A stretch of DNA of 64,000 bases from the IMG/VR virus record IMGVR_UViG_3300037634_003213, one strand, 5' to 3'. This DNA is from an uncultured virus (IMG/VR IMGVR_UViG_3300037634_003213) (lineage: Duplodnaviria > Heunggongvirae > Uroviricota > Caudoviricetes). This document shows positions 6,101 to 61,121 of this stretch, piece by piece. Made by a program: the position numbers and the translations under genes. Within the stretch, counting starts at the first letter, position 1; the number at the start of each line of letters is the position of its first letter. The notes under the pieces were generated by a model. It saw nothing but the letters and a program-made list of their open reading frames with translations, was not told the origin of the DNA and ran no database searches.

Positions 6101-9100
6101 AGTAGATGAAACCGAGTTCAGAACGGCCCTGTGAGCCATGTCTGCTGCCTCCATCTCTTTGATAGCCTTTTTAAGCTGCGATTTTGCACGCCGACGTTTA
6201 GCCGCATCCTTGATTTTTGGGATTCGAGATTCAATCTTCTCGACTTGTCTCTTGAACTTCGTATAGCGACCAAGAGCTTTCCTTGCCTTTCCTGCAATCT
6301 TATTGGCGTTTAACGATGCAATATCAACGGACTGCACTTCAATCAACGGGCCGCCAGGTTTTGTCCAATCACGAATCTCAATTATCGGCAGAACATTGGT
6401 CTCAACGTCAAGAAGGATTTGTTTTTTCCCAAACCGATCCTTAAGAGCTTTTGTTCCAATAGTTATAGAGAAGCCAAGAATATGGTTCGCTTCATTGCGA
6501 GTTAAGGGGGAACCCTTGTTTATCGATGCTGCACGAGCCCGACCCACCATGTCTGCCAGGTCCCGCATGCTTCTTGGTCTTGCTACGGCAGCAAACATCT
6601 GATTGTCTAATAGATTTGTTTGCATCGATAAGAACGCAAACACATACTGTGACGCAACGTCCATTAAATGGACTTCCATTTGTTGGGCCCACTCAGCACG
6701 AGCTTCATTGTTTATAAAACGATTTTCCGAGAAGAAGTCTTCGATATTTGGTCGTTTAGCCTCAAGGCCATAGCCGCTGTGAAGCTTGTCGTACATCTCC
6801 TCGACCATTGCTGTGTAGGCTTCTTTGTACTGTTCAATGATTTCATCAAAGTTGCCGAGGGTGTCGGGCTTTCCAAAAAGACCTTCACCAACATCTGACC
6901 ACCATTTTCCAGCAGCCTCGTCGGTAATCATCTCAATCGGGCGTCTCGCTAAATACTGAACGTCCGCAAAGCTAAACACTCCCTCTTTTCCGCCAGGAAT
7001 CAACACCTTCATCCCTTGCTCTCCACCAAAACCAGTGGCCTTAAGCATTGGATATACTGGGCCAGAAACTTCCGAACGCTCGATCCTTGTGCCTTCTGGT
7101 GTTTCTACGATGCGCTCTACGGTGAACTTTGTATCCGTGGAAATGTCCTCAAGAGGAGAAGCGCTACCCATCCTCTGCTTTAAAATTTCTGCTTGGTAAG
7201 AAGTAATCTCAGAGTTGAAAACCCTTTGCTTAAGACCCGAGTCTACTTCAAAGTCCACAACAGCATGCGGCGTTCCGCCAATCTTCTCAGATGAAAGATC
7301 GAACTCTGCTGCTAACTCTTCTGAGAAGTGCCCTGAATCAAGAGCATCGCGCTCATTGAGAACTTGGCGAATGTCTGGCCCAAGCCTGTCAACGGCTCCA
7401 TCAATATCCAAAAGATCAGAAGAACCTGTAGGTCCTGTCGCAACTTTTGTTGTTGGTTCTGCTACTCCCTGAGACTCTCTAAGGGCTTCAATGCGGCGAT
7501 TTGCAGTGTTTAGTCTACGCTCATATAGGCGCTTTGTCCCGACCGCTGTGGCCTTGCTCAGACTCTCTTCAGCCTCTGCCGCACGCTTCATTAAGATTTG
7601 CATCTCGATTGATTCTGGTGCCTTGGCCGCCCCTTTAACAGGCTTCTCCATGAGCGAGATAAACTCAGTCTTGGGTCGCGAAGCAAGCTCTTCAAGTGGC
7701 GCATCGAGCAGTTCATCCGTCACGCGGATCAACTCGGTCAAGGCGTTGTGGTCTTTCTTTGCAACACCGAGCAGGTCTGCGATCTTTTCGACGAAGACAT
7801 TCCACATCGACTTGTCTTCAACCTTAATGGTCATCAAATAGTCTTGGAACGTCTTGTTTGTCAGGCCATAAGCAACAAACTCTTTCACATTTCCAGTCGC
7901 GCTTATGAGAACTTCTTCAGTAGCGGCGTCAAGGATTTTCTCTTTTTGGGCTTGTTTAGCAAGCTTGACTACTTGGTTGCGAAGGTCAAAAATATCAGCC
8001 GTAGCTTTTTGAAGCGCAGTGCCCTTGTTCGCAGGACGGTTGCCATCAAAAAGCCGCCTCACGGTGGCTGCATGTACCAACTCGTGCAGTGCGGCTTCAG
8101 CCGTCGTTCCAGAGAAAGCCTCATTCCCGCGAAGGAACACATCATTAAAAGCGTCACCAGCAGGCGACCAATTTAGACCACTGGTGACTACACTCAACCG
8201 AGATTCGTGTGCGGAAATTAAGGTTAATTTATAGGCAATTTTATTTGGTAATGTACCTTTTTTCTCCATGTCGTATACAGCTTTTGGTATATCCTCGCGG
8301 CCCTCAATTACATGCACCTCGGTATCGCCTAAGTGAGGCTTGATACGCTCAGCAATACGTTGGTGTACAGGATTGTCTGCATTTTCAGCAATAAACTCAG
8401 CAAGCTCAGTGCCCGTTTTTGCCTGACGCATGGCAGCGTTGGCTTCTCCGAGAGTCAGTTCACCTAGCCCTACATCGGTTGGGACGTTTGATTTCTCGGC
8501 TTGAACAACGTCAGTGGGCGGTGCCTCCGCCATCCGAAGCTCAGCGGGAGGTAGTTCTTCCTCCATCCTCAACAGGTCTTGGGCAACCTCAACCTCATCA
8601 AGATCTGGGATGTATTGCCCGTCAAGCCCGGCTCGTTGTCTTGACAAGGCGCTGAACACCCCCTCGTCTGCCATTCGCACCTGGAACCCCGTAGCTCTGC
8701 GCAGCGCAACCTCACGGCGAGAAGCCATACCCGCTGCCTTATCGTCAAACAGGCGGTCAACTAAAGTCGATAGCGCGGGATGAAAGTCCGTTCTCGCTCT
8801 GGGAGCACGCCTATACCAGGAGTTAAACCAGTTAGACATGCGCTCCATCAGGTTGTTAAAAATGCGGAGCAAATCACCAGCGCCGCGTTGTGTTGCCACA
8901 ACATTAGGAAGACGATGCGTGATTACGAACTCAGCGAAGTTCTCAGCAAACCATTCATTGAACTGAATGTCGGTCATTGTTTGGAAGTTTCGCGTGTATG
9001 GCGTATCTCTGAACAAGCCAAAGTCGTCCAACTCATCCCTGAAAGCTTTCGAGAGAATCGCGATTTCACTGTCAGCCAAAAACGACATCGCAACACCGTG

Positions 9101-12100
9101 ACCAAGCTCGTGAAGAAACTGGTAGGTGCGAGGGCCGACACGATCAGAGCCTCTCTTATAGGAGTCCAGCGCATGCTCAAATTGAGATACGAGTTGCTCA
9201 GTTTTTTCAGCGGAAAACACCTCGCCCTCTTGTCGCTTCATCCAAGTCTCAGCGTCTACATATCGCTCCGACAACTCACGAGAGGTATAGGTTTTGCCGG
9301 TTTTTGGGTTCTTTCTGTCTGACAAGAACCGAATAGCAACGGATCGAAAACCTTGATTATCATCCCTCTTATAGCGAATGGCTTCGAAAATCTCATCGAG
9401 GTTTGCGCCGATTAAGAAAGAGCTTTCCGCTGCTTTCATCGTTCCGATCTCGTCGGCATAACCGAAAAAATCAACAGAACTAATCAGCCGATCAACCGCC
9501 CCACCTTCTGTTAGAAGCTCTGTAGTCCTCGCAGAAGCACCTTGTGCAATACCGGCAATCTGATCATTAAGGCGTATGTCTCTCAACACCCTTTCTGGAA
9601 GGGACATAACCAGCGCTTCAAGGACCGCCGCTTGGTCTACCTCAAGAAACCCTTTCTCAGCAAGAGCCCTGATAGACTGAGCAATCTGAGCGCGTCCAGC
9701 ATTAGCCTGGGCGGCAGAAACTTTTGCTTCTCCAGCATCATCCAATGTCTCGCGGGCTCGCCTTACTCGCTCGGAAACATCTTCAAGAACATTATCGAAA
9801 AGCTTTCGAACTGAATCAAGAGTGGCTTCGTCTGAGAACCGGGCCAACATATTGTCTTCTGCCCGAGAAAGTAGTTCTACAAAGTCATCAAACTTTGATT
9901 GAGCGGTAGCAGGCATGTCAGCAAATTCTTTCGCAAGACGATGTGAAATCTCGCCAAGAAGATCGGCACCAATGTCGCTCTTGTGCGTTGTGCGACTGAT
10001 AAGAGTCACAAGCATATCCATGCCCATGCTTCTGAGTCTTGCTTTATCTCCAACAGCATTGACGATTTCAAACTGAGCAGCATCGCTTAAGGCGTTGAGT
10101 TGTGCCTCATCCGATAAATCGACATCAACGGTCCTAAGCTCATCAGCAGGAATAGAATCAACAAGCGCTTGTTTGGCTGAATCAACCTCGCCTGCGCGTG
10201 ATCCAATCGTCATGCTCGGTGGCTCTACAGATCGGCCCGATTTAATGTCATTAAGCAATGATTCCATGTAGGTCTCAATTGCTTTACTCCCCTCTTCGAG
10301 GCCCCTGACCCGCGCAAGACCAACAGCATGGGTTTCAATCATTGCCATTAGAGAATCGACAACGTCAATACCTTCAAGAGACTTGTAGTTCAGGGGATTT
10401 CTTTCATTGGCTGCTTCAAGCTCATCTCTAAGGCGAGAGTATGAGGCTGATTCCCGAATACCTTTTGTGTAATCGTCCACGCTATCAAGGCGTGCTGCTG
10501 CTTCTGAAAGAAACTTAGCAGTCCTCATCTTCGAGGAGTCTTTAAGAACGCGATTCACATCTTCAGCAGCGATACCACCGCGCCGCATGACCTCAAACAC
10601 ATTAGAACGAAATTTTGGACCAAACCCCTCAAGCGGGTTGCGGCCTTGTAGTAGGTTCTTATTGAAAAGTTCACCGGCCATCATGCTTGTTAAATCGTGC
10701 ATGCCCCCGAACTTTTTGGTTAGAGGTGCCGGACCCATGCCAGGTATGGCATTTCTCCAACCCATAAAACCTCGTTGCCGACTTTTGGCTTCTCGCATCC
10801 TTTTTTTGGCCAGGCTTAGCTCAGGGTCACCGAAAATGACTTCCCTCAAATCTCTTCGACCCAGCCTTTCTACAGTATCGGCTCGACGTTTTGCTGCTCC
10901 AGTCGTTGCCGTGTCTACTGCTTTTTGGTAATCCGCAATGTCTTCAACGGGCGCAACTTTCTTCCACAGACTCCCGAACCCATAAATGCCGTCTGCCAAA
11001 TACGCGGCCCGCATTGTGTCGAGGGCAATCGGTGCGCCAGGCATGTCTTTGTAAATCTTCCTTAGACGGGCTGTGCCTACAAAAGGTCGAGCCAATGTTG
11101 CTAAACCCATCTCCTCAACAGGAACAAGAAAATCTAAACCCAGACCAGTGGCTATTGAGGCTTTATAAAAGCTGCTGTTTTTGTCATAGCCTAAACCAAG
11201 CGCCGTTTCTCCAAGCCTATCCATAAACCCAGCAGCACCATAAGGGTCCATACCGGACCACGAATCGTTGATGCTGCCACGGTCGCTAGCGCGGCCATCC
11301 CAATCCCACGCGCCGAACTGATCTCCAATAGCCATGATCGGATCAGATATGACATCCATGGCTATCTCAGAAATAGGGCCAGCAAAAAACTCACCCCCGA
11401 CCCGCAAGAAGGTGCCCGCACCATTTTCATCTATGGTAACAGTTGTTCCATCTTCGAGGTAACGAGAGTCGGTCATCGCGTTACCCAGCGTCTGGATCGC
11501 GAAATCGCCAACCTTTCTGTCTTCTGGGCCGTACATCGCCTCTCTTGCTGCTGTCTGACGTTCGATGTTTTTACGAATGCCTTCGTAGCCCCCCATTTTT
11601 TTAAAAACGCCAGAGCCTATTTTGCCTGGAAGGGTGTAAAGCTTTTGGCGATTAAGCTGACTCTCAATGGTTTCCCAGCCATCGTCGGAGTGAACGTACT
11701 CCTCAAGGTACACGCCCTCGTCCTCGGCCCTTTCTTTGGCCCCTTGGATGATTCTATAGATCGCAGGATGTAAATACAGAACATCTGGATTTTCAACATA
11801 GATGCTGAGCGCTTGAGGCGGCTGCACTGGGTAGTTCTGAGCTTTTAGAAACTCGTCCTTAAACTCAGAGAATGACGGAACGTCTAACAGGTAATCGTTG
11901 ACTCGTATGTCATCACGAGACTTACCCAAAAACATTTTTGTAAACTCGGCCTTCCGCACTGACGGGTCGTCTGAGATAAGTTCTTCGTTGTCAAAAAACT
12001 TTTTAAAATCCTCTGCAACTTCACTGCCCCACAAAGCTGTGTTTATCTGGCCAAAATCAGAACCAGGCACATCGATACCTAGAGCATCTCCAATACGCAC

Positions 12101-13630
12101 AGGCAATTGCGCTACCGTGCTGCCTACCTGGGTTACAGTTTGAAAAGATGTTTTAAACGCTGTACCGGAACCGCTAAAATCGATCTCTGGGCCATAGGGA
12201 TTTACTGCTTTAAAAACAGGATTGGCGAACATAGCCGTGTTGCCCCACCAACTATCCTGCATGTGGCCCGCCCTGGTCGCCCACGGGTCTTCACCCAATT
12301 CATTTTCACTAACAATTCTGAGCCTTCTGTCCGGCCATAAATCACTGGGGATTTGCTGGATTATTCTGTTCAGCCTTTTGGTAATCTCTTCGCCATCACG
12401 CCCAGAGTCAAGCATTTCTTGCCTGACCCGCCAAATATCAATCGCTGCTTTTACCCGTTCAGCGACCTGACTATTTGTTGGATATGTATCGATGTCATTC
12501 CAGTCTTCTTCACCGCTACGTTTGGCACCGCCTCTCTTCTTCCATTCAGAAACCCAGTCAGAAGGCTGTGCGATCCAAGTGCTTTCTATAGAGCCCACTT
12601 CCTTGGATCGTTTTGCCTCCTTAAGAAAAGCATCTCTCTGCTGAACATATTGGCCAAGCACATCTATAAATGAAGCGTTGCCCAACGCAATGTTGTTTTG
12701 CTGTTCCAAATGTTCGTTGTAAGTCTTTAATTCTTCTTCACTAGCTTTTCCTAAATGAGCCCGAATCTCAACCGTTTCATACCAGGGCCTAAACTGCCCA
12801 GTATCTGGGTGTGCTGCATCTTTGTGTGCTTTTTCTGCCGGATGACCGGGGTAAACGACGCGAGGATTAAACGTCTGATCACGATTTCTCCACCACCTCT
12901 GGCCTCGCGATTGGCCATAATACTTTTCAGAAACAGTTTCAGCATCAACATGCCAAGGGTTGACCTTACTGGACGCCCAGGATGCGACTGATCGCACCCC
13001 GCTACCAAGAGCGCTCTCGTTAGCTATTTCTCCAAAAGATTGAAATACTCCGGGCCGAAGAGTCAGGTTCTCTGCTTGCGTGACTCTATCCACAAGGTCT
13101 TGGCCTGAACTCTCGTGTCTAGAAGAAGTGGCTTGGAAAGATCGGGCTATAGCCTCATCTTCAGTGAGGCCCTCCGCTTGTTGAAGAGCGTCTTTTACAT
13201 TGTAAAACATCCTGTCTTCAAGACGCTCTTGATACGTTGCCGTTTGAGAATAGGAGCCAGGAACAGGGAACACCGACTCCCTTGGATAAAGCTTTCTGAG
13301 AAAAACACGTTCTGCGTTATCCTCTGCCTGGCCTTCTGCTGCCCAAGCTTCCGCTGCGCGATTCGGGCTGCTCGGATGTTCGCTAATAAGATTCAAGTAT
13401 TCTATGGATTTCTTATCTCTTTCCTCATCAGTCAACCCTGGGGTGGTTTCGTCAACAAACTGATTGGCCGCCTCAATGTACCTTCTTTGAAGGTCTTCAC
13501 CATGCACGATGTCAATCGTTGGAGGCTCTCTCTCCATGTAGCCTTCAGGGACCGTTACAAGATCTTCGTATTCGTCATCAATAGACGAGGTGGCTACCCT
13601 TACGGGGCCAAGAGGCGGCAGCTTAGCCAT
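146..13630 (-). CDS. Giant (4494 aa) internal virion/DNA-ejection polyvalent protein with two zincin HExxH motifs and an HhH-GPD-like region
   Basis: Single 13.5-kb ORF at the end of the tail/ejection cluster; motifs FLHELGH...EWFAE, LHELVH...EFVAY, FLSMQT...PGMATK...AIDIH; C-terminal A..A...FDY..L..FE....R..F.FY pattern typical of large phage ejection proteins. Confidence 0.75.
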   Translation of the reverse strand: MAKLPPLGPVRVATSSIDDEYEDLVTVPEGYMEREPPTIDIVHGEDLQRRYIEAANQFVDETTPGLTDEERDKKSIEYLNLISEHPSSPNRAAEAWAAEGQAEDNAERVFLRKLYPRESVFPVPGSYSQTATYQERLEDRMFYNVKDALQQAEGLTEDEAIARSFQATSSRHESSGQDLVDRVTQAENLTLRPGVFQSFGEIANESALGSGVRSVASWASSKVNPWHVDAETVSEKYYGQSRGQRWWRNRDQTFNPRVVYPGHPAEKAHKDAAHPDTGQFRPWYETVEIRAHLGKASEEELKTYNEHLEQQNNIALGNASFIDVLGQYVQQRDAFLKEAKRSKEVGSIESTWIAQPSDWVSEWKKRGGAKRSGEEDWNDIDTYPTNSQVAERVKAAIDIWRVRQEMLDSGRDGEEITKRLNRIIQQIPSDLWPDRRLRIVSENELGEDPWATRAGHMQDSWWGNTAMFANPVFKAVNPYGPEIDFSGSGTAFKTSFQTVTQVGSTVAQLPVRIGDALGIDVPGSDFGQINTALWGSEVAEDFKKFFDNEELISDDPSVRKAEFTKMFLGKSRDDIRVNDYLLDVPSFSEFKDEFLKAQNYPVQPPQALSIYVENPDVLYLHPAIYRIIQGAKERAEDEGVYLEEYVHSDDGWETIESQLNRQKLYTLPGKIGSGVFKKMGGYEGIRKNIERQTAAREAMYGPEDRKVGDFAIQTLGNAMTDSRYLEDGTTVTIDENGAGTFLRVGGEFFAGPISEIAMDVISDPIMAIGDQFGAWDWDGRASDRGSINDSWSGMDPYGAAGFMDRLGETALGLGYDKNSSFYKASIATGLGLDFLVPVEEMGLATLARPFVGTARLRKIYKDMPGAPIALDTMRAAYLADGIYGFGSLWKKVAPVEDIADYQKAVDTATTGAAKRRADTVERLGRRDLREVIFGDPELSLAKKRMREAKSRQRGFMGWRNAIPGMGPAPLTKKFGGMHDLTSMMAGELFNKNLLQGRNPLEGFGPKFRSNVFEVMRRGGIAAEDVNRVLKDSSKMRTAKFLSEAAARLDSVDDYTKGIRESASYSRLRDELEAANERNPLNYKSLEGIDVVDSLMAMIETHAVGLARVRGLEEGSKAIETYMESLLNDIKSGRSVEPPSMTIGSRAGEVDSAKQALVDSIPADELRTVDVDLSDEAQLNALSDAAQFEIVNAVGDKARLRSMGMDMLVTLISRTTHKSDIGADLLGEISHRLAKEFADMPATAQSKFDDFVELLSRAEDNMLARFSDEATLDSVRKLFDNVLEDVSERVRRARETLDDAGEAKVSAAQANAGRAQIAQSIRALAEKGFLEVDQAAVLEALVMSLPERVLRDIRLNDQIAGIAQGASARTTELLTEGGAVDRLISSVDFFGYADEIGTMKAAESSFLIGANLDEIFEAIRYKRDDNQGFRSVAIRFLSDRKNPKTGKTYTSRELSERYVDAETWMKRQEGEVFSAEKTEQLVSQFEHALDSYKRGSDRVGPRTYQFLHELGHGVAMSFLADSEIAILSKAFRDELDDFGLFRDTPYTRNFQTMTDIQFNEWFAENFAEFVITHRLPNVVATQRGAGDLLRIFNNLMERMSNWFNSWYRRAPRARTDFHPALSTLVDRLFDDKAAGMASRREVALRRATGFQVRMADEGVFSALSRQRAGLDGQYIPDLDEVEVAQDLLRMEEELPPAELRMAEAPPTDVVQAEKSNVPTDVGLGELTLGEANAAMRQAKTGTELAEFIAENADNPVHQRIAERIKPHLGDTEVHVIEGREDIPKAVYDMEKKGTLPNKIAYKLTLISAHESRLSVVTSGLNWSPAGDAFNDVFLRGNEAFSGTTAEAALHELVHAATVRRLFDGNRPANKGTALQKATADIFDLRNQVVKLAKQAQKEKILDAATEEVLISATGNVKEFVAYGLTNKTFQDYLMTIKVEDKSMWNVFVEKIADLLGVAKKDHNALTELIRVTDELLDAPLEELASRPKTEFISLMEKPVKGAAKAPESIEMQILMKRAAEAEESLSKATAVGTKRLYERRLNTANRRIEALRESQGVAEPTTKVATGPTGSSDLLDIDGAVDRLGPDIRQVLNERDALDSGHFSEELAAEFDLSSEKIGGTPHAVVDFEVDSGLKQRVFNSEITSYQAEILKQRMGSASPLEDISTDTKFTVERIVETPEGTRIERSEVSGPVYPMLKATGFGGEQGMKVLIPGGKEGVFSFADVQYLARRPIEMITDEAAGKWWSDVGEGLFGKPDTLGNFDEIIEQYKEAYTAMVEEMYDKLHSGYGLEAKRPNIEDFFSENRFINNEARAEWAQQMEVHLMDVASQYVFAFLSMQTNLLDNQMFAAVARPRSMRDLADMVGRARAASINKGSPLTRNEANHILGFSITIGTKALKDRFGKKQILLDVETNVLPIIEIRDWTKPGGPLIEVQSVDIASLNANKIAGKARKALGRYTKFKRQVEKIESRIPKIKDAAKRRRAKSQLKKAIKEMEAADMAHRAVLNSVSSTDVIALTGDIVLSSPADTAKLLEMYDMMYEDFVKVQRGDLKQSFFERYPDEAWDAFSDRVSSMVPGMATKISAFGIYWQNPIAATISAIDIHQIGIIGKKFLKEERWQNKARGWYDDWRTIKSKAAKKHLEEVAEAQLIRKSKKNKAPSTKAIKARAKQILNDQRKRRESVSFEQFLKADKSNPGYTFWRDQLRTEITTPQRLQVHPVGVSEYRKAFPTKNIDSKKVRQVMADVKANTKLTPKQRADRVGKLEDAIKAHEHIESAEKMFGSDHPIVDKFIRDLSREKDGTKYVEVMSPDYKEVLESMARDVQERDVLGNVATRSHVIWDEWRGYLDPHVIVQPGSTMLPAVRPAALKSIIKSLEATFPEIKDPRVQADLTSRHSRLVSGLFGAGFRDLHSSFKEGRFGGTAPFEGRPLPTEMSKGALYMREGGPPSTPLNILISAGRDLSDLFNKGDASVLFKENSNALLYLMAEEFPEMMEVFTNKFDSIVGENGVTTLTGRGRAEVSDAFVDFWHSRNVDDPQVDMAFHGIKDKLAVFWRRIRHRADRTNPAVRRYFDEWLGVLNDAKKEAMFDVSDSAEFKSIPRVPLKESVLETEVVAKGGRSKEATRIDLDEGRIRHALELGDDVTEVDTFKTMQKAVEYVSREMSRTKYTNNWLSFSTRSIVPARMLPRYLEEVQLRTYSVFGDPHALKKQMKKVPKERAKLDRFGDEIIGEDGMPEWEVATEILPDGREVPVEITVFELTELQQVNLKSLLLELYADPRTKDPVRMVLGEYLGPHGDLSVLPEAHYDFITREMLRDHVVGVGTGLTKEMKKVPKSLGYAAVQNVLSSRGFKWFGGDIIVRSLKKKFKTRAPLAHVRKSKTGKETSVDTEVVSPIVKELFMRRSRQIDDIPNWIRRVQKSLKEGRMASGVWETLEGLKEVLEQPISNQSYRTLDNVEVYFDSQRGISFDVVVERLDDIQIAFADNRLMLPTERKAIELLREIDLIKRTEPERTVLRNGKVEIKDPLMREAIAEAYLVLGEGISRRLHMADDAVETIIVGMAGSPEAARKIFNRKDGSFTERGDAIALYNLFYRGEWGEVLRTFANKGYSTGTALKYPGRYNLAHAMLETIVRLRAQSIFKGLINDMTDMGMAVKVEDLAPSSIRSITEKRAFAERVRLYLNDEMKFGGVGHLVDESGSLLHEGLQSRLEGPRFLAEGGGKLQGSGPGAGLLSKQARKRLSKEGGYRRTQATMGDVVTKVVVDDLEAYTVAQDLIEKWGMKYGANIENWELTRFSDGSEALTPKLFLDEINDAVDRVAGTASARAGRSRLKTESGHLPEAEALPGLLNRAKRVKNKLHKDYINSADLMNFTMNTFSWSYRMTKMGLTSGIFMVNLPYYVANAFGAQLQVYQKVGMRGYFSSMSHPRIALEVSAALWGRTPTMRFSKIKPIVTPDGTVWSREAITKSCHEHGLSGSFLSMETARSIAADLKKNEPSFWEKMTGETEYEKLPYKEVDYPGFAGVELPGPVRSLRFYHEQLINFATFIDNYHRVALFTEGLGRGLSPADAAKSARSALFDYSDLTPFEKKYMRQIFIFYSFQRKNLDLFWDTFLTNPHRIMGQFRLARGVNRVFLDGDETLIESDYSVGRLGLMFVRNSANRMVQMNRYNAPILPAMEAIKGQLDFFSFVGSFLPTDNVILRQKRMKNQLRFMSRLNPWIQAPMAMTIQKSFFRGTKMREERIPTFWAQHDILTTGGMMLRGVGGRVRAIKEFEEQEFPGQTHVWEAAEIMNWYLLQNIWHGPVPVMPMREDTPGTSWMGDVGEVIDYTPIGLLARLQPIKGFKEGTLGVAPAGRMIDSLNRFGRAGMIIPQLLDADLKYYKHLVRIEKRGKLVDDKRLGEGEDFDKAMNALGFQIDPETGDIDFQQGPEGEPIRGARPRIGVDEGWKSILFGVQQMPTEDAAILMHYYRTQRALQGAVGELEAKTRDRPLDISDRYQPEGSD

Positions 13631-26110: not shown

Positions 26111-26121
26111 GTTCCCTCCTG

Positions 26122-26160
26122 AAAGAAAGCCCCCCGAGAGTATATCTCCCGAGGGGCTTC
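26122..26160 (-). terminator. Rho-independent terminator after the capsid/decoration genes
   Basis: Minus strand GAAGCCCCTCGGGAGATATACTCTCGGGGGGCTTTCTTT: GC stem plus U-rich tail. Confidence 0.7.
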
Positions 26161-26180
26161 AAAGTCACACAAAGTTGGAA

Positions 26181-26639
26181 TCAACCAAACCAGCCCTTAT
26201 CAATGATAAGAATAGCTCCGTCAGCAGCACCATCTGTGAAAGCGTTCACAACAACCGCAAAGGGCTGTTCGTCTGCGGCCTCAGTGTCCCACGCACGGAT
26301 TTCACCACTGGCAGAACCGCCAACCATAGTACCGATAGCAGCCGTGTCGCCAGTAACGATTTCTGGAGTATCGTTAAATCCGGCAACCTGGATTTGAACT
26401 GGCCGACCGTCAGCAGCAGCAGTCACGGCAACGCCGCATGCGAGAGGAGAGTTGCTTTCAGCCGTCACTGTCACAACGAAACCAGCGGCACCATAGGTGT
26501 CGGGATCTGGGTCCGCAGTTGTGTCAGTTTCGACTTTCACAACATTGCCAACTGCAATGGCTCCATTGGCCAGCGCGGTAACAATCTTTTTAGGGTATGC
26601 AATGACGCCGTTTGCGCCATCTAATTTTAATACAGACAT
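26181..26639 (-). CDS. Capsid decoration/cement protein
   Basis: 152 aa, Ala/Gly/Val-rich, AIAVGNVV and GVAVTAAA.G..V.IQV.G pattern; directly downstream of the MCP. Confidence 0.65.
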   Translation of the reverse strand: MSVLKLDGANGVIAYPKKIVTALANGAIAVGNVVKVETDTTADPDPDTYGAAGFVVTVTAESNSPLACGVAVTAAADGRPVQIQVAGFNDTPEIVTGDTAAIGTMVGGSASGEIRAWDTEAADEQPFAVVVNAFTDGAADGAILIIDKGWFG

Positions 26640-43574: not shown

Positions 43575-43613
43575 GTGTAGCGATTTGCACTACACAAAAT
43601 GCCGGACAATACT
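43575..43613 (+). promoter_or_regulatory. Early sigma70-type promoter (TTGCAC-N17-AATACT) overlapped by operator GTGTAG-N9-CTACAC
   Basis: -35 at 43585-43590, -10 at 43608-43613, AT-rich tract upstream at 43450-43530. Confidence 0.55.
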
Positions 43614-43646
43614 GATTGTGTGGAAAGGGAATCTCCCAACCCACAA

Positions 43647-43658
43647 CGCTCTTTTAAA
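43647..43658 (+). promoter_or_regulatory. boxA-like antitermination site CGCTCTTTTAAA
   Basis: Matches the rrn/nut boxA core GCTCTT; preceded by a hairpin. Confidence 0.55.
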
Positions 43659-43818
43659 TCCTTTCATGATCTCAACCCAAATCGAGGCCCCACCCCCAGC
43701 GGGGGACGCAGGATCGATAGCCTAACGGCGGCACCCCCTTCTTATAGGGCGGAGCTTTGGAACGGACCCCAGGATCGGGGGGCTCAGCTAAACGCTGGCG
43801 AACCGATATAAGGATGGA

Positions 43819-43830
43819 TGCTCTTTGAAA
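43819..43830 (+). promoter_or_regulatory. boxA-like antitermination site TGCTCTTTGAAA
   Basis: Close match to rrn boxA. Confidence 0.6.
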
Positions 43831-43844
43831 TTCGAAAACTGTAA

Positions 43845-44415
43845 GGCACCCTGGCTATTTTTAGTCGGGACCCAATCAATCCAAGCAATTTAGGCGCTTA
43901 CTCTATCGCTATCAGGTGATAGAACCTCTGACCCCTTTCACGGAATACGTGTTGGGATAGGTAGGGCGAACGGTTCACGGTGCGCGGCGGGTCCTGCGTT
44001 TAGAGAGGGACCAGATAGCAGCGAGTAGACATAGAAACCGTGTACAGTCAAGCCGGACCGCGACCCCCCCGTCAAAGGGAGCGTGATAGCCGGATAAGGA
44101 AAGCCTTGGATTGACCGTCGAGTAGAGAAGGTGGGAGCCTGCAAGGGGCCCCTGCGTGGATGAAAGACGATCTGACCCCCAAGGTGCAAGGCGAGCGAAA
44201 GCCACGACCCACGACCCTTAGACTGTGCGACGGCGAACGAACAAAGCGACCCTAAAACGGGCGACATCTCCCAAGATCATAGCGATCAAGGAGGTGTCTT
44301 GCACCCTATACCCCCAAGGTGGGGACGCTTTGCGGCAATGAGGCAACCTTCAGGCCCCCCTTCGGGGGGGTTCTGACGGGCCTAATCAATGCACGGGCAT
44401 TCCGCGCGTGTATTG
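43845..44415 (+). ncRNA. Large structured non-coding RNA, family unassigned
   Basis: No credible plus-strand ORF; more than 12 hairpins, nested long-range helices, GCAA/GAAA/UUCG loops, many G-U pairs valid on the plus strand. Confidence 0.65.
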
Positions 44416-44457
44416 TTCCGGCCTGACCGCCAATAAACCTGACAAAGGACCGACAAA

Positions 44458-44915: not shown

Positions 44916-45110
44916 GCAGGGTGGGATTAGGCCCTGTGCGTCCACTACTCCGAAGGGGGTAGTGGGGTTCCCCAAGTGTTTGAGGAATGCATGACGCCAC
45001 CCGAGGGTGTGGTCCGTGTAACCTACCGGGACCCTTGAGACCTGGGCACGTCTGCACTGAGGCAATGACGCCTCGACAACCTAAACTGCCCACGCCATTG
45101 GAGGCAACTA

Positions 45111-45185
45111 ATGGAGAAATTTATTGTAATAATTGCAGGCTACTACTGGGCAAGCGCCCTGGCCAACACACTGGTAGGTTTCTAA
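45111..45185 (+). CDS. 24-aa hydrophobic peptide MEKFIVIIAGYYWASALANTLVGF
   Basis: GGAGGCAACTA-ATG motif; TAATG coupling to the next gene. Confidence 0.6.
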   Translation: MEKFIVIIAGYYWASALANTLVGF

Positions 45186-45502: not shown

Positions 45503-45533
45503 ACCACTAACCCTAACCCATTGGAGGCAACCT

Positions 45534-45590
45534 ATGGCAATCGCACTGACCGTGCTCTATACACTGACGCTACCCCTAACCCTCACCTGA
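45534..45590 (+). CDS. 18-aa hydrophobic peptide MAIALTVLYTLTLPLTLT
   Basis: GGAGGCAACCT-ATG motif. Confidence 0.45.
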   Translation: MAIALTVLYTLTLPLTLT

Positions 45591-45684: not shown

Positions 45685-45701
45685 CGCAACAAGAGGCAAC
45701 C

Positions 45702-46058
45702 ATGACACCGAACCCACCTATCCCCCAAAAAATCCAGCAAGTAGCGACAGCATGGCGGGCCAACGCCAAAGAAGCGGGCATGCCAGACGATGCCTGCTAC
45801 GTCAGCTATGACCCGAACGAAGAGAGGCGAGTCAAGGAATTCTACATCGACCCATGGGGGTCCCCTGACTACCGCTACAAGTCCATTGAAGGACCGGCGT
45901 GGGAGATGGCCTGCAACTACGAGCGAGGCCCCATCCTCTTCTGGTTCCCTGAGCAAGATATCTGGCTGCTGATGTACCAGTATGCAGAAGGCTGCGAGCG
46001 CATGAAGGGCGGCCACTCGGAGGCAGTGGCCACCGCTGAGATTGTCTACACTGGATGA
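45702..46058 (+). CDS. Hypothetical protein
   Basis: GAGGCAACC-ATG. Confidence 0.7.
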   Translation: MTPNPPIPQKIQQVATAWRANAKEAGMPDDACYVSYDPNEERRVKEFYIDPWGSPDYRYKSIEGPAWEMACNYERGPILFWFPEQDIWLLMYQYAEGCERMKGGHSEAVATAEIVYTG

Positions 46059-47608: not shown

Positions 47609-47654
47609 ACCTAATAGCAGCCAATGAAGGCTGACCAAACGAGGCAACAACACC

Positions 47655-47963
47655 ATGAAAAAACAACCTGACTACAATCATGATCTCTACGATATCTTTG
47701 AGCCCGGTGAACCAGGATTCCACGGATACAAAATCGGTGAGAGGCTGCGCAATATCGGAGCAAAAGAGACAACGTGGACGGTGGTTCAAATCTTCTGCCC
47801 GAATAGGCCGGAAAGCCTGGGCGAGATTCGCATTGTCAATGACCAGACTAACTACAAAAAGTATGTAGAGACACACACCCTGGACCTTTACTGGGTCCGA
47901 GTACCGGAAGAGGCAGCCCCCGTGAAGACCTGGACACCCGAGGCGGGCTGGGTTGTATCATGA
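47655..47963 (+). CDS. Hypothetical protein
   Basis: GAGGCAACAACACC-ATG. Confidence 0.65.
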   Translation: MKKQPDYNHDLYDIFEPGEPGFHGYKIGERLRNIGAKETTWTVVQIFCPNRPESLGEIRIVNDQTNYKKYVETHTLDLYWVRVPEEAAPVKTWTPEAGWVVS

Positions 47964-48121: not shown

Positions 48122-48166
48122 CAACAACCAAAGTGTAGCCATGCTACATACACAACGAGGCAACCA

Positions 48167-48352
48167 ATGACAACCTACACACAAGACAACAGGCAGTACC
48201 AAGTACACGACTGCAAGACATGCGAAGGCTCCGGGCTCGCACCGTGGCACCTCGGATGCGGCGACAGTGGTCCCGACGATTGCAGGAAGTGCGACGGCAT
48301 CGGCCAGTACGCCACTGAAATAACACCAACAAAGGAGGCAACCAATGGATGA
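48167..48352 (+). CDS. Small zinc-finger protein (CxxCxGxG repeats)
   Basis: CKTCEGSG...CRKCDGIG; GAGGCAACCA-ATG. Confidence 0.7.
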   Translation: MTTYTQDNRQYQVHDCKTCEGSGLAPWHLGCGDSGPDDCRKCDGIGQYATEITPTKEATNG

Positions 48353-48560
48353 CTACACAGCAGCACGATTCGCTGATGCTTACGAGCGACCCTACCCCGA
48401 GGACCACCCACGGTGTGAGTACTGCGGCGAGCACTTGACTGATGACGAGCAAGACCACGAAGGACCGAACGAACTGTGCAGCGAACACCGCACGGATGAC
48501 CAACAGACAGAACAACAACAACAACAACAACCAACCCTAACGGAGGCAACCAATGGGTGA
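48345..48560 (+). CDS. Small CxxC protein
   Basis: CEYCG...CSEH; GGAGGCAACCA-ATG. Confidence 0.65.
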   Translation: MDDYTAARFADAYERPYPEDHPRCEYCGEHLTDDEQDHEGPNELCSEHRTDDQQTEQQQQQQPTLTEATNG

Positions 48561-49624: not shown

Positions 49625-49677
49625 AACCCTACCTTAGAACACAACACACGCCCAGCAATGGGCACTGGAGGCAACTA

Positions 49678-50040
49678 ATGACAAACTATACACTATACAT
49701 TGCAGAGATTGACAACCTACCGGAGGACGCCACAATCGACGAACTGGCGTTTCTTTACTACAAACCCCACCAAGATACACCGGGCCCAGTTCACATGTTC
49801 CGAGTCAAGGCGACAGGCATGGAGGAAGCAACGGAGCGCTTGCGTGGTCAAGCATTCAACAAAGGCTGGTCTATTCACAACACCCTTTCAATCGTGGTTG
49901 ACGGGGCAGGCATGAGATACCGCGACTGGATTGAGATGAACTTTGACGCGGCGAACAACGAGTTGTTCAAAGCCAAGGAAGAAGCAGCCAAGTGGGCGAC
50001 TGCTTTGCATAAACTAAACCAAACAGGAGGCAACCAATGA
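49678..50040 (+). CDS. Hypothetical protein
   Basis: GGAGGCAACTA-ATG. Confidence 0.7.
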   Translation: MTNYTLYIAEIDNLPEDATIDELAFLYYKPHQDTPGPVHMFRVKATGMEEATERLRGQAFNKGWSIHNTLSIVVDGAGMRYRDWIEMNFDAANNELFKAKEEAAKWATALHKLNQTGGNQ

Positions 50041-57908: not shown

Positions 57909-58164
57909 ACCAAAAGAAACACGCGCCCAGAAATTCTACAGGCTTTCCGAATGCAAATCAATGGCAGAGTTTGCACGCAAGACAAGCTTCCACCCAGTGA
58001 CAATAAGAACATATCTCCTTCCATCCGATAGGAAAAGCTGGAGACCAACACCTATCCCTGCTTTGCATAACTGGGCACAAGCCCTCAAGGAAGGCGGCGG
58101 ACCATCAATCGCTATTGGGCTTTGGCCTGATGGGGACGTGACCTTTGAAGTCGAACAAGAATAG
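57889..58164 (+). CDS. Cro-like HTH protein (start revised, MIRTTP...)
   Basis: SMAEFARKTSFHPVTIRTYL helix-turn-helix pattern; AAGGA SD. Confidence 0.6.
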   Translation: MIRTTPKPKETRAQKFYRLSECKSMAEFARKTSFHPVTIRTYLLPSDRKSWRPTPIPALHNWAQALKEGGGPSIAIGLWPDGDVTFEVEQE

Positions 58165-58453
58165 GCGACCAAAGTATTGGTCAAACTGGAGAGAGGACTC
58201 AAAGCTGTCGAGCATAGTGGCTTCCTATGAGATCTTCATAGGGGATAGACTGTCTGTTGTATCGTTCACTAATACAGGCGCACCCATAATGGAGATAGTC
58301 TCGCCAAAAAGATCACTAAGAAAAAAAGCAAAAAAAGCAGGGATGATTTATGGGCGATGGCCAACAGAAAACGGTGGAGAACGGCGCGGGTGGATACCTG
58401 GCCGACCTGATGAGCCGTTAGAAACAAACCCTTATTTAATTGAAAAGCGTTGA
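58145..58453 (+). CDS. Hypothetical basic protein
   Basis: 102-aa ORF, last of the plus-strand block. Confidence 0.5.
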   Translation: MKSNKNRRPKYWSNWREDSKLSSIVASYEIFIGDRLSVVSFTNTGAPIMEIVSPKRSLRKKAKKAGMIYGRWPTENGGERRGWIPGRPDEPLETNPYLIEKR

Positions 58454-58483
58454 TGAGTAGTAAAAGTCGGTTAGACTTAAACC

Positions 58484-58559
58484 TGTCAGGTGTTGGTTGC
58501 CTCCAACCACGACGTTGCGACCCCGGTAGTGTCGGTCTCTATCGGGGTCGCTTTACGTC
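58484..58559 (+). ncRNA. Candidate trans-acting sRNA antisense to the GGAGGCAACCAA start motif
   Basis: TTGGTTGCCTCC at 58493-58504 in a hairpin; TTGATG-N16-TAGACT at 58450-58477; strong 3' stem 58511-58559. Confidence 0.6.
58517..58554 (+). terminator. Hairpin between convergent genes (terminator-like, short U tail)
   Basis: GCGACCCCGGTAG-N9-CTATCGGGGTCGC-TTT. Confidence 0.6.
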
Positions 58560-58562
58560 CAG

Positions 58563-58754
58563 CTAAGACTGTTGAGAATATCCATCGGCGGCCCAGCCGC
58601 CCCCTTTGAGTGAGAAGCTTGTCCGCGATACCATCTTATTGGTCCGCTTAGACTGGCACTTTGGACACACCTGGGCTTTGTCGCGCTCCGCTTGGGACAA
58701 GAGCTTATCGAACTGAGCAGCGCAGTTGTCACAACGATATTCAAAGATGGGCAT
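58563..58754 (-). CDS. FmdB-family zinc-ribbon protein
   Basis: MPIFEYRCDNC...CPKC...FSLKGGGWAADGY. Confidence 0.85.
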   Translation of the reverse strand: MPIFEYRCDNCAAQFDKLLSQAERDKAQVCPKCQSKRTNKMVSRTSFSLKGGGWAADGYSQQS

Positions 58755-58755
58755 T

Positions 58756-60156
58756 TTAGTACCAGGTTGGTTGACTGTCCTCATCATCAAGGTCTTTCCT
58801 TATACGCTTAACCTGTGTGAATTCAACGGGCCGCACTACCCGCCGAGTCTTGTCCTCAAACTTCTGGTTACTCGCATTCCAATCCACATGCACAGTGCCG
58901 GTTGCTCCGTTGCGATGCTTGGATATAATAATCTCAGCGTCTGAGGGGTCAGCCCTTTCGTCGTAGTAACTGTGCCTATAAAGGAACATCACCACGTCTG
59001 CGTCTTGTTCCAGTGAGCCAGAACCTCTTAGGTCTGACAGCATGGGCCGCTTGTTGGTGCGCTGCTCGCAGCCACGGTTGAGTTGGGCAAGGCAGAGGAT
59101 AGGCACATCCAAATCTCTTGACAGCACCTTTAATGCACTGGACACCTGTGAAACACTTTGCTCCATACTCTCCGCTTTTGGCGGTCGAATAAGTTGCAGG
59201 TAGTCCACCACGATCAAACCAAGATCGGGCTGCCTTGACTTAAGGCGGCGTGCTTGTGCAGATATTTTTGCAATACTGATCCCAGCCTTATCTGAAACAT
59301 ACAAGGGAGAATCGTGAAGGAACTCAAGCGCTGATGTTTCAAGCCGGTCCCAATCTTTAGAGCTAAGGTCTCCCGTCTTTATGTTCCAAGCGTTTACCTT
59401 GGCAAGTGAAGAAGCCATTCGGTCAGTCAGTTGATCCGCGCTCATCTCTAAAGAAAAGAAAGCCACAGGTACTCGTGCCTCTAAAGCAGCAACCGCAAGG
59501 TTTAAAGACATGGCTGTCTTGCCCATGGAGGGTCGAGCAGCCAACAACGTTAGGCCAGGGTGAAGGCCGCTCAATACATTGTCGAGCGCCACAAGGCCCG
59601 TAGACAAGGCAGTCACAGTTCCGCTGGCATTTAGCGCAGCAAGCCTCTCCCACCGATTCTGAGCGCTTTCGACAAGCTGCGGACCCTCATGCCAGTCGTC
59701 TCCACGTTGTCTGCCAGCAATGTCTAGTAGGTCCTTCTGGCCCTGCTCAATAAGCTCATCAATCTCTAAGCCGCCGTTGGTAGCGCAAGCCTGTAAATTT
59801 ATAGAGGCTAAAACCATTCGCCTACGAATAGCCTTCTCTCTCATGTTCTTGGCATGGTAGGGAACCGAATCAAGAACAGGACAACATTCAGGCAGGCTTG
59901 TGATGTATGCGAGGTCGTTATATTTAGACTCTGAATTTGTGGTCATGAGATGTTCGCAAACCATCAAGACATCAACGTGCTTCCCGCTGTGGGCTCGCGA
60001 GCGAATCAAAAGATAAAGGTTCTTGTGTTTGTTACTATAGAAATCGTCTGGCTCGATCTCACCAGCAACGTCATTCAATAGTGTGGAGTCTGATAGTAAA
60101 CCTCCGAGAACAACTTTTTCGCTTTGAATGCTGTTAGGAAACTGCTTGTCGGTCAT
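58756..60156 (-). CDS. dnaB: Replicative DNA helicase
   Basis: AARPSMGKT, FSLEMS, VVDYLQL, AQLNR, SDLRGSGSLEQDAD, KHRNG. Confidence 0.97.
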   Translation of the reverse strand: MTDKQFPNSIQSEKVVLGGLLSDSTLLNDVAGEIEPDDFYSNKHKNLYLLIRSRAHSGKHVDVLMVCEHLMTTNSESKYNDLAYITSLPECCPVLDSVPYHAKNMREKAIRRRMVLASINLQACATNGGLEIDELIEQGQKDLLDIAGRQRGDDWHEGPQLVESAQNRWERLAALNASGTVTALSTGLVALDNVLSGLHPGLTLLAARPSMGKTAMSLNLAVAALEARVPVAFFSLEMSADQLTDRMASSLAKVNAWNIKTGDLSSKDWDRLETSALEFLHDSPLYVSDKAGISIAKISAQARRLKSRQPDLGLIVVDYLQLIRPPKAESMEQSVSQVSSALKVLSRDLDVPILCLAQLNRGCEQRTNKRPMLSDLRGSGSLEQDADVVMFLYRHSYYDERADPSDAEIIISKHRNGATGTVHVDWNASNQKFEDKTRRVVRPVEFTQVKRIRKDLDDEDSQPTWY

Positions 60157-61121
60157 CGGTGGTTGCCTCTACTAATGATTTTGTTTTGAGTGTTGCTCTG
60201 AAGCTCAGTCCGAACCTCTGATAGAAATTGATCGCGTACAACGTGTTGCTGTTTTCCAGGTCGGAGGGTTCCCAAAAATCTCCAGCCCCCCACTGAATCA
60301 ACAGCCTCAACCATTGCTTCATGCACTCGTCGTATACTGTGAAGCGATGTTGGCCGAGAAGGATAAGCCCCAACCAAGAACAGCAGGCGCTCCCACAGAG
60401 CCTCGTACTTTGGTTCAAACGATTGCTTCTTAGGTGGAATGAATACCCATTCATTTCCATCCCATCTTTCTCTGGCCACTGTCACATTGCGATCTACCTT
60501 CTCTCTATTAAGAAGATTGGCAATGTCCATGTATCCCTGCTGTCGCCAGCTATCGACCAAGAAGTCACCGTCTGGAAACTCAAAGGCCATTCGGACAACA
60601 AGGATGAGATCCTGAGCGGTATGACCCCCAACCAAAGCGGCCCGTAACACACGCTCTCTACCCTTCGTTAGCTTGTTGTGGCGATGGGTCCTTCGGTATT
60701 GAGCTAACTCCCAGACATCAAACACAGTTCGGATCTCTACAACAAATCGTTCAGCACGTTTTGGGACGATGACAGCAGCAGGTTGGGACGCAAAAAGAAC
60801 CAGGCTTTCTGTGATTACAGGGGTTTGCGTATCCTCAACAGCGATAGTTTGGGACGGCACCGTATCTGTGTTGGGACAATTTGGTTTAAATCGATCCAGT
60901 ATCGAGCGTGTTTTTCTTTCGGTAAGACCCCATCGACTCATTAGTTTTCGGCGCGACGGAACTTTTCCAGTTTCAAGTTCAAGAAAACCAATATCAATTT
61001 CTGCCAATTTAATAGGCCATGGTTTTTTTATAGCCTGCCGAACCTGCCTCCACGCATCAGCAGTGATTAATAATCCGGTCGGTCCACTGTCTTTATTCAT
61101 CTTGCCATCGGTCCTTTCCAC
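60153..61121 (-). CDS. Putative replication initiator (lambda O-like position)
   Basis: N-terminal winged-HTH-like PSRRKLMSRWGLTERKTRSIL; internal iterons; directly upstream of dnaB. Confidence 0.6.
   Translation of the reverse strand: MERTDGKMNKDSGPTGLLITADAWRQVRQAIKKPWPIKLAEIDIGFLELETGKVPSRRKLMSRWGLTERKTRSILDRFKPNCPNTDTVPSQTIAVEDTQTPVITESLVLFASQPAAVIVPKRAERFVVEIRTVFDVWELAQYRRTHRHNKLTKGRERVLRAALVGGHTAQDLILVVRMAFEFPDGDFLVDSWRQQGYMDIANLLNREKVDRNVTVARERWDGNEWVFIPPKKQSFEPKYEALWERLLFLVGAYPSRPTSLHSIRRVHEAMVEAVDSVGGWRFLGTLRPGKQQHVVRDQFLSEVRTELQSNTQNKIISRGNHR
60761..60877 (-). repeat. Four GTCCCAA iterons inside the initiator gene
   Basis: TTGGGAC (+) at 60761, 60783, 60849 and 60871; spacings 22/66/22. 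Confidence 0.75.

Follow-up and report, generated by a model that had tools for sequence, protein, structure and literature searches.

Why does a non-coding gap between two convergent phage genes hold an exact antisense copy of the motif with which many other genes of the same phage begin? The question arises in a stretch of 64,000 nucleotides (nt) from an uncultured virus of the Caudoviricetes (IMG/VR record IMGVR_UViG_3300037634_003213), hereafter called the window, which comprises most of a phage genome of ~70 kb with 50.5% G+C. A sequence-only reading of this DNA had proposed that positions 58484 to 58559 encode a small RNA (sRNA) whose seed is complementary to a start motif shared by 18 phage genes. 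From the comparative sequence analysis described here, we conclude that the gap very probably contains a conserved, structured RNA gene on the plus strand. We further lean towards the view that this RNA pairs with the region from the Shine-Dalgarno sequence (SD) to the AUG of the genes that carry the motif, and represses their translation.

The gap (58454-58562, 109 nt) is bounded by the TGA of an early gene (58451-58453) on one side and by the stop of a small open reading frame (ORF) with two CxxC motifs (58563) on the other. As the sequence-only reading had it, GGTGTTGGTTGCCTCCAA occupies 58489-58506, and 58493-58504 is the exact reverse complement of the 12-mer GGAGGCAACCAA; this is the only antisense copy in the window, and it lies in non-coding DNA. 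Likewise, the hexamer pair TTGATG-N16-TAGACT (58450-58477), the GTTGG/TTGCCT/CCAAC hairpin and a 13-bp stem with one G-U pair all lie where that reading had placed them. Its statement that the seed sits in a hairpin holds in refined form: the loop UUGCCU of the plus strand is single-stranded, and the other seed bases belong to the 5' arm of the first stem-loop (SL1). The parts of the predicted unit are the following.

58450-58455, plus strand: -35-like hexamer TTGATG, overlapping the TGA stop (58451-58453) of the upstream gene
58472-58477, plus strand: -10-like hexamer TAGACT, 16 nt after the -35
58485-58556, plus strand: predicted sRNA of ~72 nt, with predicted ends at the conserved G of GUC (7-8 nt after the -10) and at the U tract
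58485-58513, plus strand: SL1, GUC...GUUGG-UUGCCU-CCAAC...GAC, -9.9 kcal/mol alone, starting at the predicted first base
58493-58503, plus strand: invariant 11-mer UUGGUUGCCUC in the SL1 5' arm, the loop and the first base of the 3' arm, exact complement of GAGGCAACCAA
58497-58502, plus strand: hexaloop UUGCCU
58517-58554, plus strand: second stem-loop (SL2), a 13-bp terminator-like stem with one G-U pair, followed by UUU

Folded as RNA, the plus strand of 58484-58565 reaches -39.1 kcal/mol (z = -4.57), a stability that none of 200 shuffles equalled, and a 74-nt fold of the sRNA itself gives -36.1 kcal/mol (z = -4.85). A search of 40000-64000 on both strands with the Rfam 15 covariance models yielded no match at E values up to 1. 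Judged by its letters, the gap has the makeup of a transcription unit of its own, with a promoter and an intrinsic terminator around a short non-coding stretch. SL2 shows the plain features of such a terminator, namely a G+C-rich hairpin, a U run and a position at a gene end. It could be argued that this is all there is: a bare terminator region of convergent operons, in which the antisense motif is either a chance match or the relic ribosome-binding site (RBS) of a lost minus-strand gene. The strong hairpin at a convergent junction and the weak promoter match in the window would suit this explanation, as would a frame of 17-24 codons behind the minus-strand copy, seen with CTG/TTG starts only and in single genomes. 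However, SL2 makes up only part of the unit, and a terminator leaves SL1, the invariant 11-mer and the promoter unaccounted for. By our own arithmetic, an exact 12-mer is expected ~0.004 times on a given strand of 64 kb, and the 11-mer stays invariant in four clades while flanks, neighbours and terminator sequence change. Moreover, no ORF or start codon is conserved behind the copy, and a relic would not retain a covarying hairpin or a conserved upstream promoter. We consider the explanation by terminator, relic or chance highly improbable. A small ORF on the minus strand behind the copy was tried as a candidate gene and rejected, its CTG/TTG frames not being conserved; as had been claimed, this copy has no ATG, and we found no GTG or TTG at RBS distance either.

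The motif to which the copy is antisense is strongly enriched in the window. The 8-mer GAGGCAAC occurs 20 times, against 2.90 expected and a maximum of 8 in shuffled sequence, and 18 of these copies sit 1-6 nt 5' of an ORF-opening ATG (17 genes on the plus strand, and dnaB on the minus strand), which bears out the claim of a start motif common to 18 phage genes. The genes with this cassette comprise 16 of the early block, dnaB and a gene with a RecT orthologue. The antisense copy in the gap and a leader copy at 44340 make up the remaining two, and the late-gene strand below 58 kb has no copy of the 8-mer. Allowing at most one mismatch, the 12-mer GGAGGCAACCAA has 11 matches versus 0.49 expected (0 of 100 shuffles reach 11), and the invariant 11-mer has 19 in the window versus 1.38; exact copies of the 12-mer number three on the plus strand (48334, 48542, 50026) and one on the minus strand, which is that of the gap. 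The variants are also as described before, with TTGGAGGCAAC at 45098 and 45521, GAGGCAACAACACC at 47641, and a T directly after GAGGCAAC in 5/18 sites. The individual sites are listed below.

60154-60169, minus strand: cassette GAGGCAACCACCGATG before dnaB, conserved in relatives
45101-45113, plus strand: cassette and ATG of a 24-amino-acid (aa) hydrophobic ORF (start 45111), TTG in front; possible micro-protein or leader peptide
45524-45536, plus strand: cassette and ATG of a conserved 18-aa ORF, TTG in front
45693-45704, plus strand: cassette and ATG, 118 aa
46141-46152, plus strand: cassette and ATG, 119 aa
46513-46525, plus strand: cassette and ATG, 60 aa
46695-46707, plus strand: cassette and ATG, 130 aa, T variant
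47641-47657, plus strand: cassette GAGGCAACAACACC and ATG, 102 aa; one-bulge pairing, duplex -25.5 kcal/mol
48157-48169, plus strand: cassette and ATG, 61 aa
48335-48347, plus strand: cassette and ATG, 71 aa; target ranked first, net -19.2 kcal/mol
48543-48555, plus strand: cassette and ATG, 341 aa, ArdC-like anti-restriction protein
49668-49680, plus strand: cassette and ATG, 120 aa, T variant
50027-50039, plus strand: cassette and ATG, 77 aa
52067-52079, plus strand: cassette and ATG, 180 aa
52680-52692, plus strand: cassette and ATG, 195 aa
54142-54156, plus strand: cassette and ATG, 181 aa
56497-56508, plus strand: cassette and ATG, 66 aa
63828-63840, plus strand: cassette and ATG of the gene after a RecE-like exonuclease gene; its orthologue L055:316-1104 matches Pfam RecT at 1.4e-43
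44340-44347, plus strand: cassette copy upstream of the first early gene, in its leader, lacking an ATG and followed by a G+C-rich hairpin

A cassette copy without ATG is found at a similar place in a relative (L056). The window copy at 44340 falls into a stretch of ~800 nt upstream of the first early gene (43600-44457, plus strand) that is ORF-poor and G+C-rich, contains many short hairpins and is without an Rfam match; it might serve as a structured leader, as an origin or end region, or as a leader site targeted by the sRNA. Among the very short cassette ORFs, the hydrophobic one of 18 aa (45534-45590, plus strand, MAIALTVLYTLTLPLTLT) is kept in two clades (L056 and L055), with two substitutions in L055. 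It is possible that this ORF and the 24-aa ORF at 45111 encode micro-proteins or leader peptides.

The whole unit was found in 10 of 10 phage records, belonging to four clades, that were reached by protein searches independent of the seed. A search with the DnaB protein gave 8 loci (100-69% identity), each with the element just past the dnaB operon, and a search with the terminase added a fourth, more distant clade at 79% identity (G006, G007), which had escaped the scans for seed plus context and of which both records carry the element. Promoter, SL1 and terminator are all present at these 8 loci and in both records of the fourth clade. Hence the syntenic element, which the sequence-only reading had suggested looking for in related phages, exists, and the pattern that would have spoken against it, a start motif kept where the element is lost, is seen in no record covering the region; the nearest record, G001, is a 43-kb fragment that does not cover the sRNA region. 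A wider DnaB profile search returned no additional relatives, and the INPHARED phages gave one irrelevant dnaB match and nothing else.

Seed-based scans of viral and marine metagenome collections added further variants, with 16 of 21 metagenome matches being members of the family. The sRNA family occurs in marine metagenomes of several surveys, and it is therefore not an oddity of a single genome. Chance matches in these scans were dropped on context: L009 and L010 (2 of the 6 loci of one scan), L016 and L017 (2 of 11 in another), L034, L035, L041, L043 and L050 (5 of the 21 from metagenomes), and L054, the sole match in a genome contig (a metagenome-assembled genome of Bacteroidales). A covariance-model match in G008 was likewise rejected, as it is a terminator-like hairpin without the seed. 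The cassette, too, is shared, for in all four clades it stands before genes that are often non-homologous, and the cassettes of dnaB and recT are conserved throughout. On the early-gene strand, the 8-mer GAGGCAAC numbers 18-20 in G002, G003, G004 and G007 and 10 in G005, with 0-6 for controls. Cassette and seed are both missing from one relative of 67% G+C, whose terminase is 48% identical.

The neighbours of the element vary by clade and include the CxxC ORF, a tRNA-Asn in either orientation, and other genes. As the place of the CxxC ORF is taken elsewhere by tRNA-Asn or other genes, the slot beside the sRNA appears to be a hot spot of gene replacement. In two clades a tRNA-Asn(GUU) abuts the sRNA terminator, in opposite orientations (L005 5393-5468; L066 11144-11218): that of L005 is convergent with the sRNA and overlaps the terminator by 7 nt, and that of G007 follows the U tract immediately, in the orientation of the sRNA. 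In G007 the two RNAs could be co-transcribed and separated by RNase P, with 3' processing of the sRNA possible there. G006 (L068 near 9430) seems to keep the first bases of the tRNA-Asn only.

Which features of the element have been conserved? Every clade shows TTGAnn, 16-17 nt of variable sequence, TAnAnT and, 7-8 nt further on, the invariant GUC. Among relatives the -35 reads TTGAAC, TTGATA, TTGACG or TTGACA, at the same distance despite different coding context, and the -10 reads TAAAAT, TAAACT, TAAAGT, TACACT or TAGAAT, with G006 providing the best promoter match (TTGACA-N16-TAGAAT). The SL1 hexaloop hairpin is predicted in 13 of 13 variants; its first three pairs (GUC/GAC) are invariant and enclose a 5-bp inner stem and the UUGCCU hexaloop, and it forms a perfect 12-bp helix in the L008 clade and a 13-bp helix with one mismatch in the G007 clade. 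The CCAAC of its 3' arm turns into CCAGU, CUAGA or CUAAA, the pairing being kept via G-U/U-G pairs and one change from G-C to U-A. Within the first three clades, five SL2 pairs have changed on both sides in a compensatory way; an unrelated stem of the same kind, followed by UUUU(U), stands in its place in the G007 clade, and the U tail of the sRNA measures 3-5 nt among the variants. In an alignment of 11 sequences, all 212 cells are paired, and the covariation score, 0.252 versus 0.165, is reached by 0 of 500 shuffles; when the pairing partner is slid by 1-3 columns as a control, pairing falls to 30-48% (maximum 47.6%). Indels of 1, 2 and 10 nt among the relatives leave no conserved ORF in the gap.

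The strand on which this structure forms matters for a further explanation, in which the DNA or the hairpin is a protein site. A repressor might bind the cassettes, with the gap copy acting as a decoy when the minus strand is transcribed by read-through from dnaB, which is the alternative named in the sequence-only reading, or a protein might bind SL1; in both cases the complementarity would be a by-product. Indeed, on the minus strand no U tract follows the big hairpin, so that transcripts of the dnaB operon might run through the copy, and that a protein can repress ~30 start regions is known from T4 RegA, as described in the cited part of PMC3014915. Yet the promoter, the stem at the first base, the G-U pairs and the U tract all belong to the plus strand. 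Fold stability is higher for the plus than for the minus strand in 13 of 13 variants, and several conserved pairs are G-U, which on the minus strand become A-C mismatches. A decoy, furthermore, does not need a covarying stem around the copy, and an SL1-binding protein leaves it unexplained why the invariant block is the complement of the cassette core. We therefore regard a protein site or decoy as quite unlikely.

In the alignment of all 13 variants (A4), the invariant bases are G1-U2-C3 and the 11-mer UUGGUUGCCUC (columns T9-C19), and nothing else. As the 3' arm of SL1 changes and still pairs, it appears to be kept for structure, and the 5' arm and loop for their sequence. A hairpin that resembles SL1 plus SL2 occurs elsewhere in the window, between two late genes (26114-26195, minus strand), with UUGG-UUGAUU-CCAA followed by a terminator; it is matched by the covariance model at 20.5 bits (E 0.005), and its arm-loop-arm is two bases off that of the sRNA. 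Its complement GGAATCAACCAA does not recur in the window, and the hairpin may be a paralogue of the sRNA or a chance likeness.

The cassette sites mirror the conservation of the hairpin: they turn variable upstream of GAGG and downstream of CAA, that is, outside the core GAGGCAACCAA. Such matching edges of conservation in hairpin and cassette would be expected from RNA-RNA pairing, and we know of no other explanation for them. The conserved seed is complementary to start regions that are unlinked to it (11-mer versus cassette core, 18 genes). The pairing can extend further, as GGAGGCAACCAAUG pairs with a stretch ending in ...UGUUGGUUGCCUCC, of which the final two pairs are wobbles, so that a duplex from the SD through the AUG is possible. 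Duplexes with six cassette starts have energies of -19 to -31 kcal/mol, or a net -7 to -19 after both partners have been opened, versus a net gain of -5.7 kcal/mol for a control start with a second type of cassette and -0.2 for the capsid gene. When 87 called start regions were ranked by net cofold energy, 16 of the top 20 contained a perfect complement of at least 8 nt, in line with the earlier expectation that motif genes should lead such a screen; the gene caller used for this ranking was crude, missing the starts at 45111, 45534 and 63838 and placing an internal ATG of a giant ORF (6139) in the top 20. RNAduplex applied to every ATG (ORFs of at least 40 codons) had been abandoned for the cofold ranking, as long G/U-rich duplexes with large loops dominated and made it non-discriminating.

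The second recurrent start cassette, GGAGGTGAGTGATG, has seven exact copies between 53266 and 56051 on the plus strand, where none is expected. In this run of small genes, every TGA stop shares bases with the ATG that follows, an arrangement suggestive of translational coupling. As an internal control, GGAGGTGAGTGATG was searched for an antisense copy that could belong to a second sRNA, and the window has none.

Would pairing at these sites repress translation? A real pairing RNA could have a non-repressive outcome: it might guide the processing or stabilisation of early mRNA at gene junctions, act mainly against superinfecting relatives, or regulate one key gene such as dnaB or recT while the many cassette sites buffer it as sponges. 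This possibility draws on the same structural and complementarity evidence as repression does. Its version with single key targets agrees with the conservation of the dnaB and recT cassettes in all clades, and its superinfection version with the seed and cassette that all clades share, which would permit action across clades. However, a duplex from SD through AUG normally blocks initiation, as in the RsaE toeprints reported in the cited part of PMC2790875. Duplexes of 11-14 bp seem, in our own judgement, short for a double-strand-specific nuclease to act in processing, and no sequence feature points to activation. A pairing RNA with such a non-repressive outcome is thus in our view unlikely.

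We thus return to repression by pairing, for which the following mechanism is proposed. Host RNA polymerase would start at the sigma-70-type promoter (58450-58477), at about G58485, and yield an RNA of ~72 nt with two hairpins, SL1 with its hexaloop UUGCCU and the intrinsic terminator SL2. The loop and 5' arm of SL1 (UUGGUUGCCUC, with a G/U-rich extension towards the 5' end) would pair with GAGGCAACCAA(UG) in the cassette, the SD-spacer-start unit that stands before ~16 early genes, dnaB and recT and before no late gene. Since only the loop is free, contact would begin there, and it would spread by opening the weak stem of SL1. The resulting duplex would cover the SD through the AUG and keep 30S subunits off, so that the whole cassette class would be translated less; we take the sign of the regulation, repression, from the position of the duplex. 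Such a switch would suit a lytic cycle in which early and replication functions are shut off or dosed. As no integrase was found in the lineage, timing or dosing in lytic growth seems likelier than prophage immunity, and the seed and cassette common to all clades also make an exclusion of superinfecting relatives possible. With a stem from its first nucleotide on and a terminator hairpin at the 3' end, the RNA should be long-lived; the same argument is made for the Rsa RNAs in the cited part of PMC2790875. Transcription, the RNA ends, pairing in vivo, repression as outcome and timing are the steps of this scheme that we infer.

Several observations weigh against this reading. The window promoter agrees with the consensus at 8 of 12 positions by our own count and was not flagged by a promoter scan, which between 44 and 64 kb finds 14 sites versus 14.7 expected; having no excess over shuffles, the scan is uninformative on promoter usage. 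The -35 overlaps coding sequence in three clades, so that its conservation within clades is confounded. The U tract of the window is just UUU, and only six bases of the seed are unpaired, so that pairing by the others requires SL1 to open. As the seed itself served as the query that brought up most family members, these cannot show seed variation, and the joint absence of cassette and seed comes from one distant genome, that of 67% G+C. A co-variation of seed and target is not seen, since both cores are invariant in all clades, and when duplex energies are compared across clades, own sRNAs have no advantage over foreign ones. The base before GAGG does shift, weakly (G in 9/18 sites of the window, A in 10/18 of G007), but the L057 clade, with A in 4/7, contradicts this shift. 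Finally, there is one RNA gene for ~18 sites on abundant polycistronic mRNA, which raises a concern of stoichiometry.

Taken further, these data could describe a private riboregulatory system of a lytic marine phage lineage, in which an identical SD-spacer cassette on ~18 early, replication and recombination genes of any ancestry and one hairpin sRNA with its 11-base complement set the translation of a temporal class, the cassette serving as a portable address tag for newly acquired genes. We offer this broader picture tentatively, as one that falls a little short of an even prospect.

The genome in which the element lies is organised as follows.

146-40055, minus strand: late block with terminase, major head protein, internal virion proteins and a 4494-aa ORF
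44.4-58.45 kb, plus strand: early block, a long run of small genes mostly without known function, including the ArdC-like protein
61985-58563, minus strand: replication block with helix-turn-helix regulator, RuvC-like resolvase, 322-aa protein, dnaB and the small CxxC ORF
From 62.9 kb, plus strand: recE/recT pair
58145-58453, plus strand: last gene of the early block, start uncertain, C-terminus NPYLIEKR, frame fixed by synonymous changes in relatives; product without family match
58756-60156, minus strand: dnaB-like replicative helicase gene (Pfam DnaB_C 2.3e-91, DnaB 4.3e-18)
58563-58753, minus strand: CxxC...CxxC ORF of 63 aa downstream of dnaB, 'zinc-ribbon-like' only by eye; no Pfam or PHROG match

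Its close relatives are marine metagenomic contigs, of which one, complete, has direct terminal repeats at its ends. A tyrosine integrase was found in none of 4 near-complete relatives, other recombinase types not having been searched for, and a phage RNA polymerase was not recognised among the proteins scanned. The 4494-aa ORF, within 146-13630 on the minus strand, has no Pfam match, and the adjoining ORFs, 1053 and 1492 aa long, match neither Pfam nor PHROG; all three probably encode giant proteins of the virion or tail, in a marine podovirus-like lineage that is as yet undescribed.

If the proposed regulation is true, a phage defines a regulon by a shared ribosome-binding cassette and encodes the complement to it, which would explain the long identical start motif on unrelated early genes of this lineage. 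It would also give a testable model of early shut-off in phages without a polymerase of their own, and a compact orthogonal translation switch for engineering. In the open-access literature that we searched, we found no account of a phage sRNA that targets an RBS cassette common to several of the phage's own genes.

How, then, does the predicted sRNA compare with known systems? GcvB-type sRNAs of enterobacteria, the precedent named in the sequence-only reading, use one conserved seed against many start regions, with C/A-rich targets. The multi-target seed directed at start regions is a feature in common. In contrast, the seed of GcvB is single-stranded, its targets are loosely C/A-rich and its regulon concerns host metabolism, whereas here a class of phage genes carries an identical cassette.

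The phage sRNAs described to date have either a single phage gene or host genes as their targets, according to the cited part of a 2025 review (PMC12197685). In the same part, c4 of P1/P7, sar of P22 and OOP of lambda are described as short phage RNAs that block translation at the RBS, with the complementary sequences of c4 thought to sit in loops. Each of them addresses one gene or operon (ant, cII), is mostly encoded in cis or processed from the target operon, and comes from a temperate phage. The sRNA predicted here differs in having its own promoter, in lying away from its ~18 targets, in belonging to a seemingly lytic phage (no integrase was found in 4/4 near-complete relatives) and in the lack of an Rfam match. 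Nor does it fit the P1 c4 or P4 CI type, temperate elements with targets in their own operon, as it has a promoter of its own and is placed where the early block ends.

RsaE and RNAIII of Staphylococcus aureus bind the SDs of several mRNAs through unpaired C-rich UCCC motifs or hairpin loops and thereby block initiation, as set out in the cited part of PMC2790875. On that account they resemble our element in being short RNAs that combine a 5' hairpin with a 3' terminator and have a C-containing unpaired anti-SD motif in the most conserved part. They are, however, host RNAs with a generic anti-SD motif of 4 nt and heterogeneous targets, whereas the phage sRNA has an invariant block of 11 nt matched to the phage's own cassette on ~18 genes, and is unrelated to them in sequence or by Rfam.

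Class-wide translational control of phage early genes is known, within the cited part of PMC3014915, only for proteins, T4 RegA and RegB. RegA competes with the ribosome on ~30 mRNAs, and the endonuclease RegB cuts GGAG/U in intergenic regions of early genes (PMC3014915). As far as that account goes, what these proteins would share with the predicted sRNA is that a feature of the start region puts early phage genes under post-transcriptional control as a class. The T4 effectors are proteins with loose sites (A+U-rich, GGAG), whereas here the effector would be an RNA and the site a long, identical cassette. By this analogy, the sRNA would be the RNA counterpart of T4 RegA.

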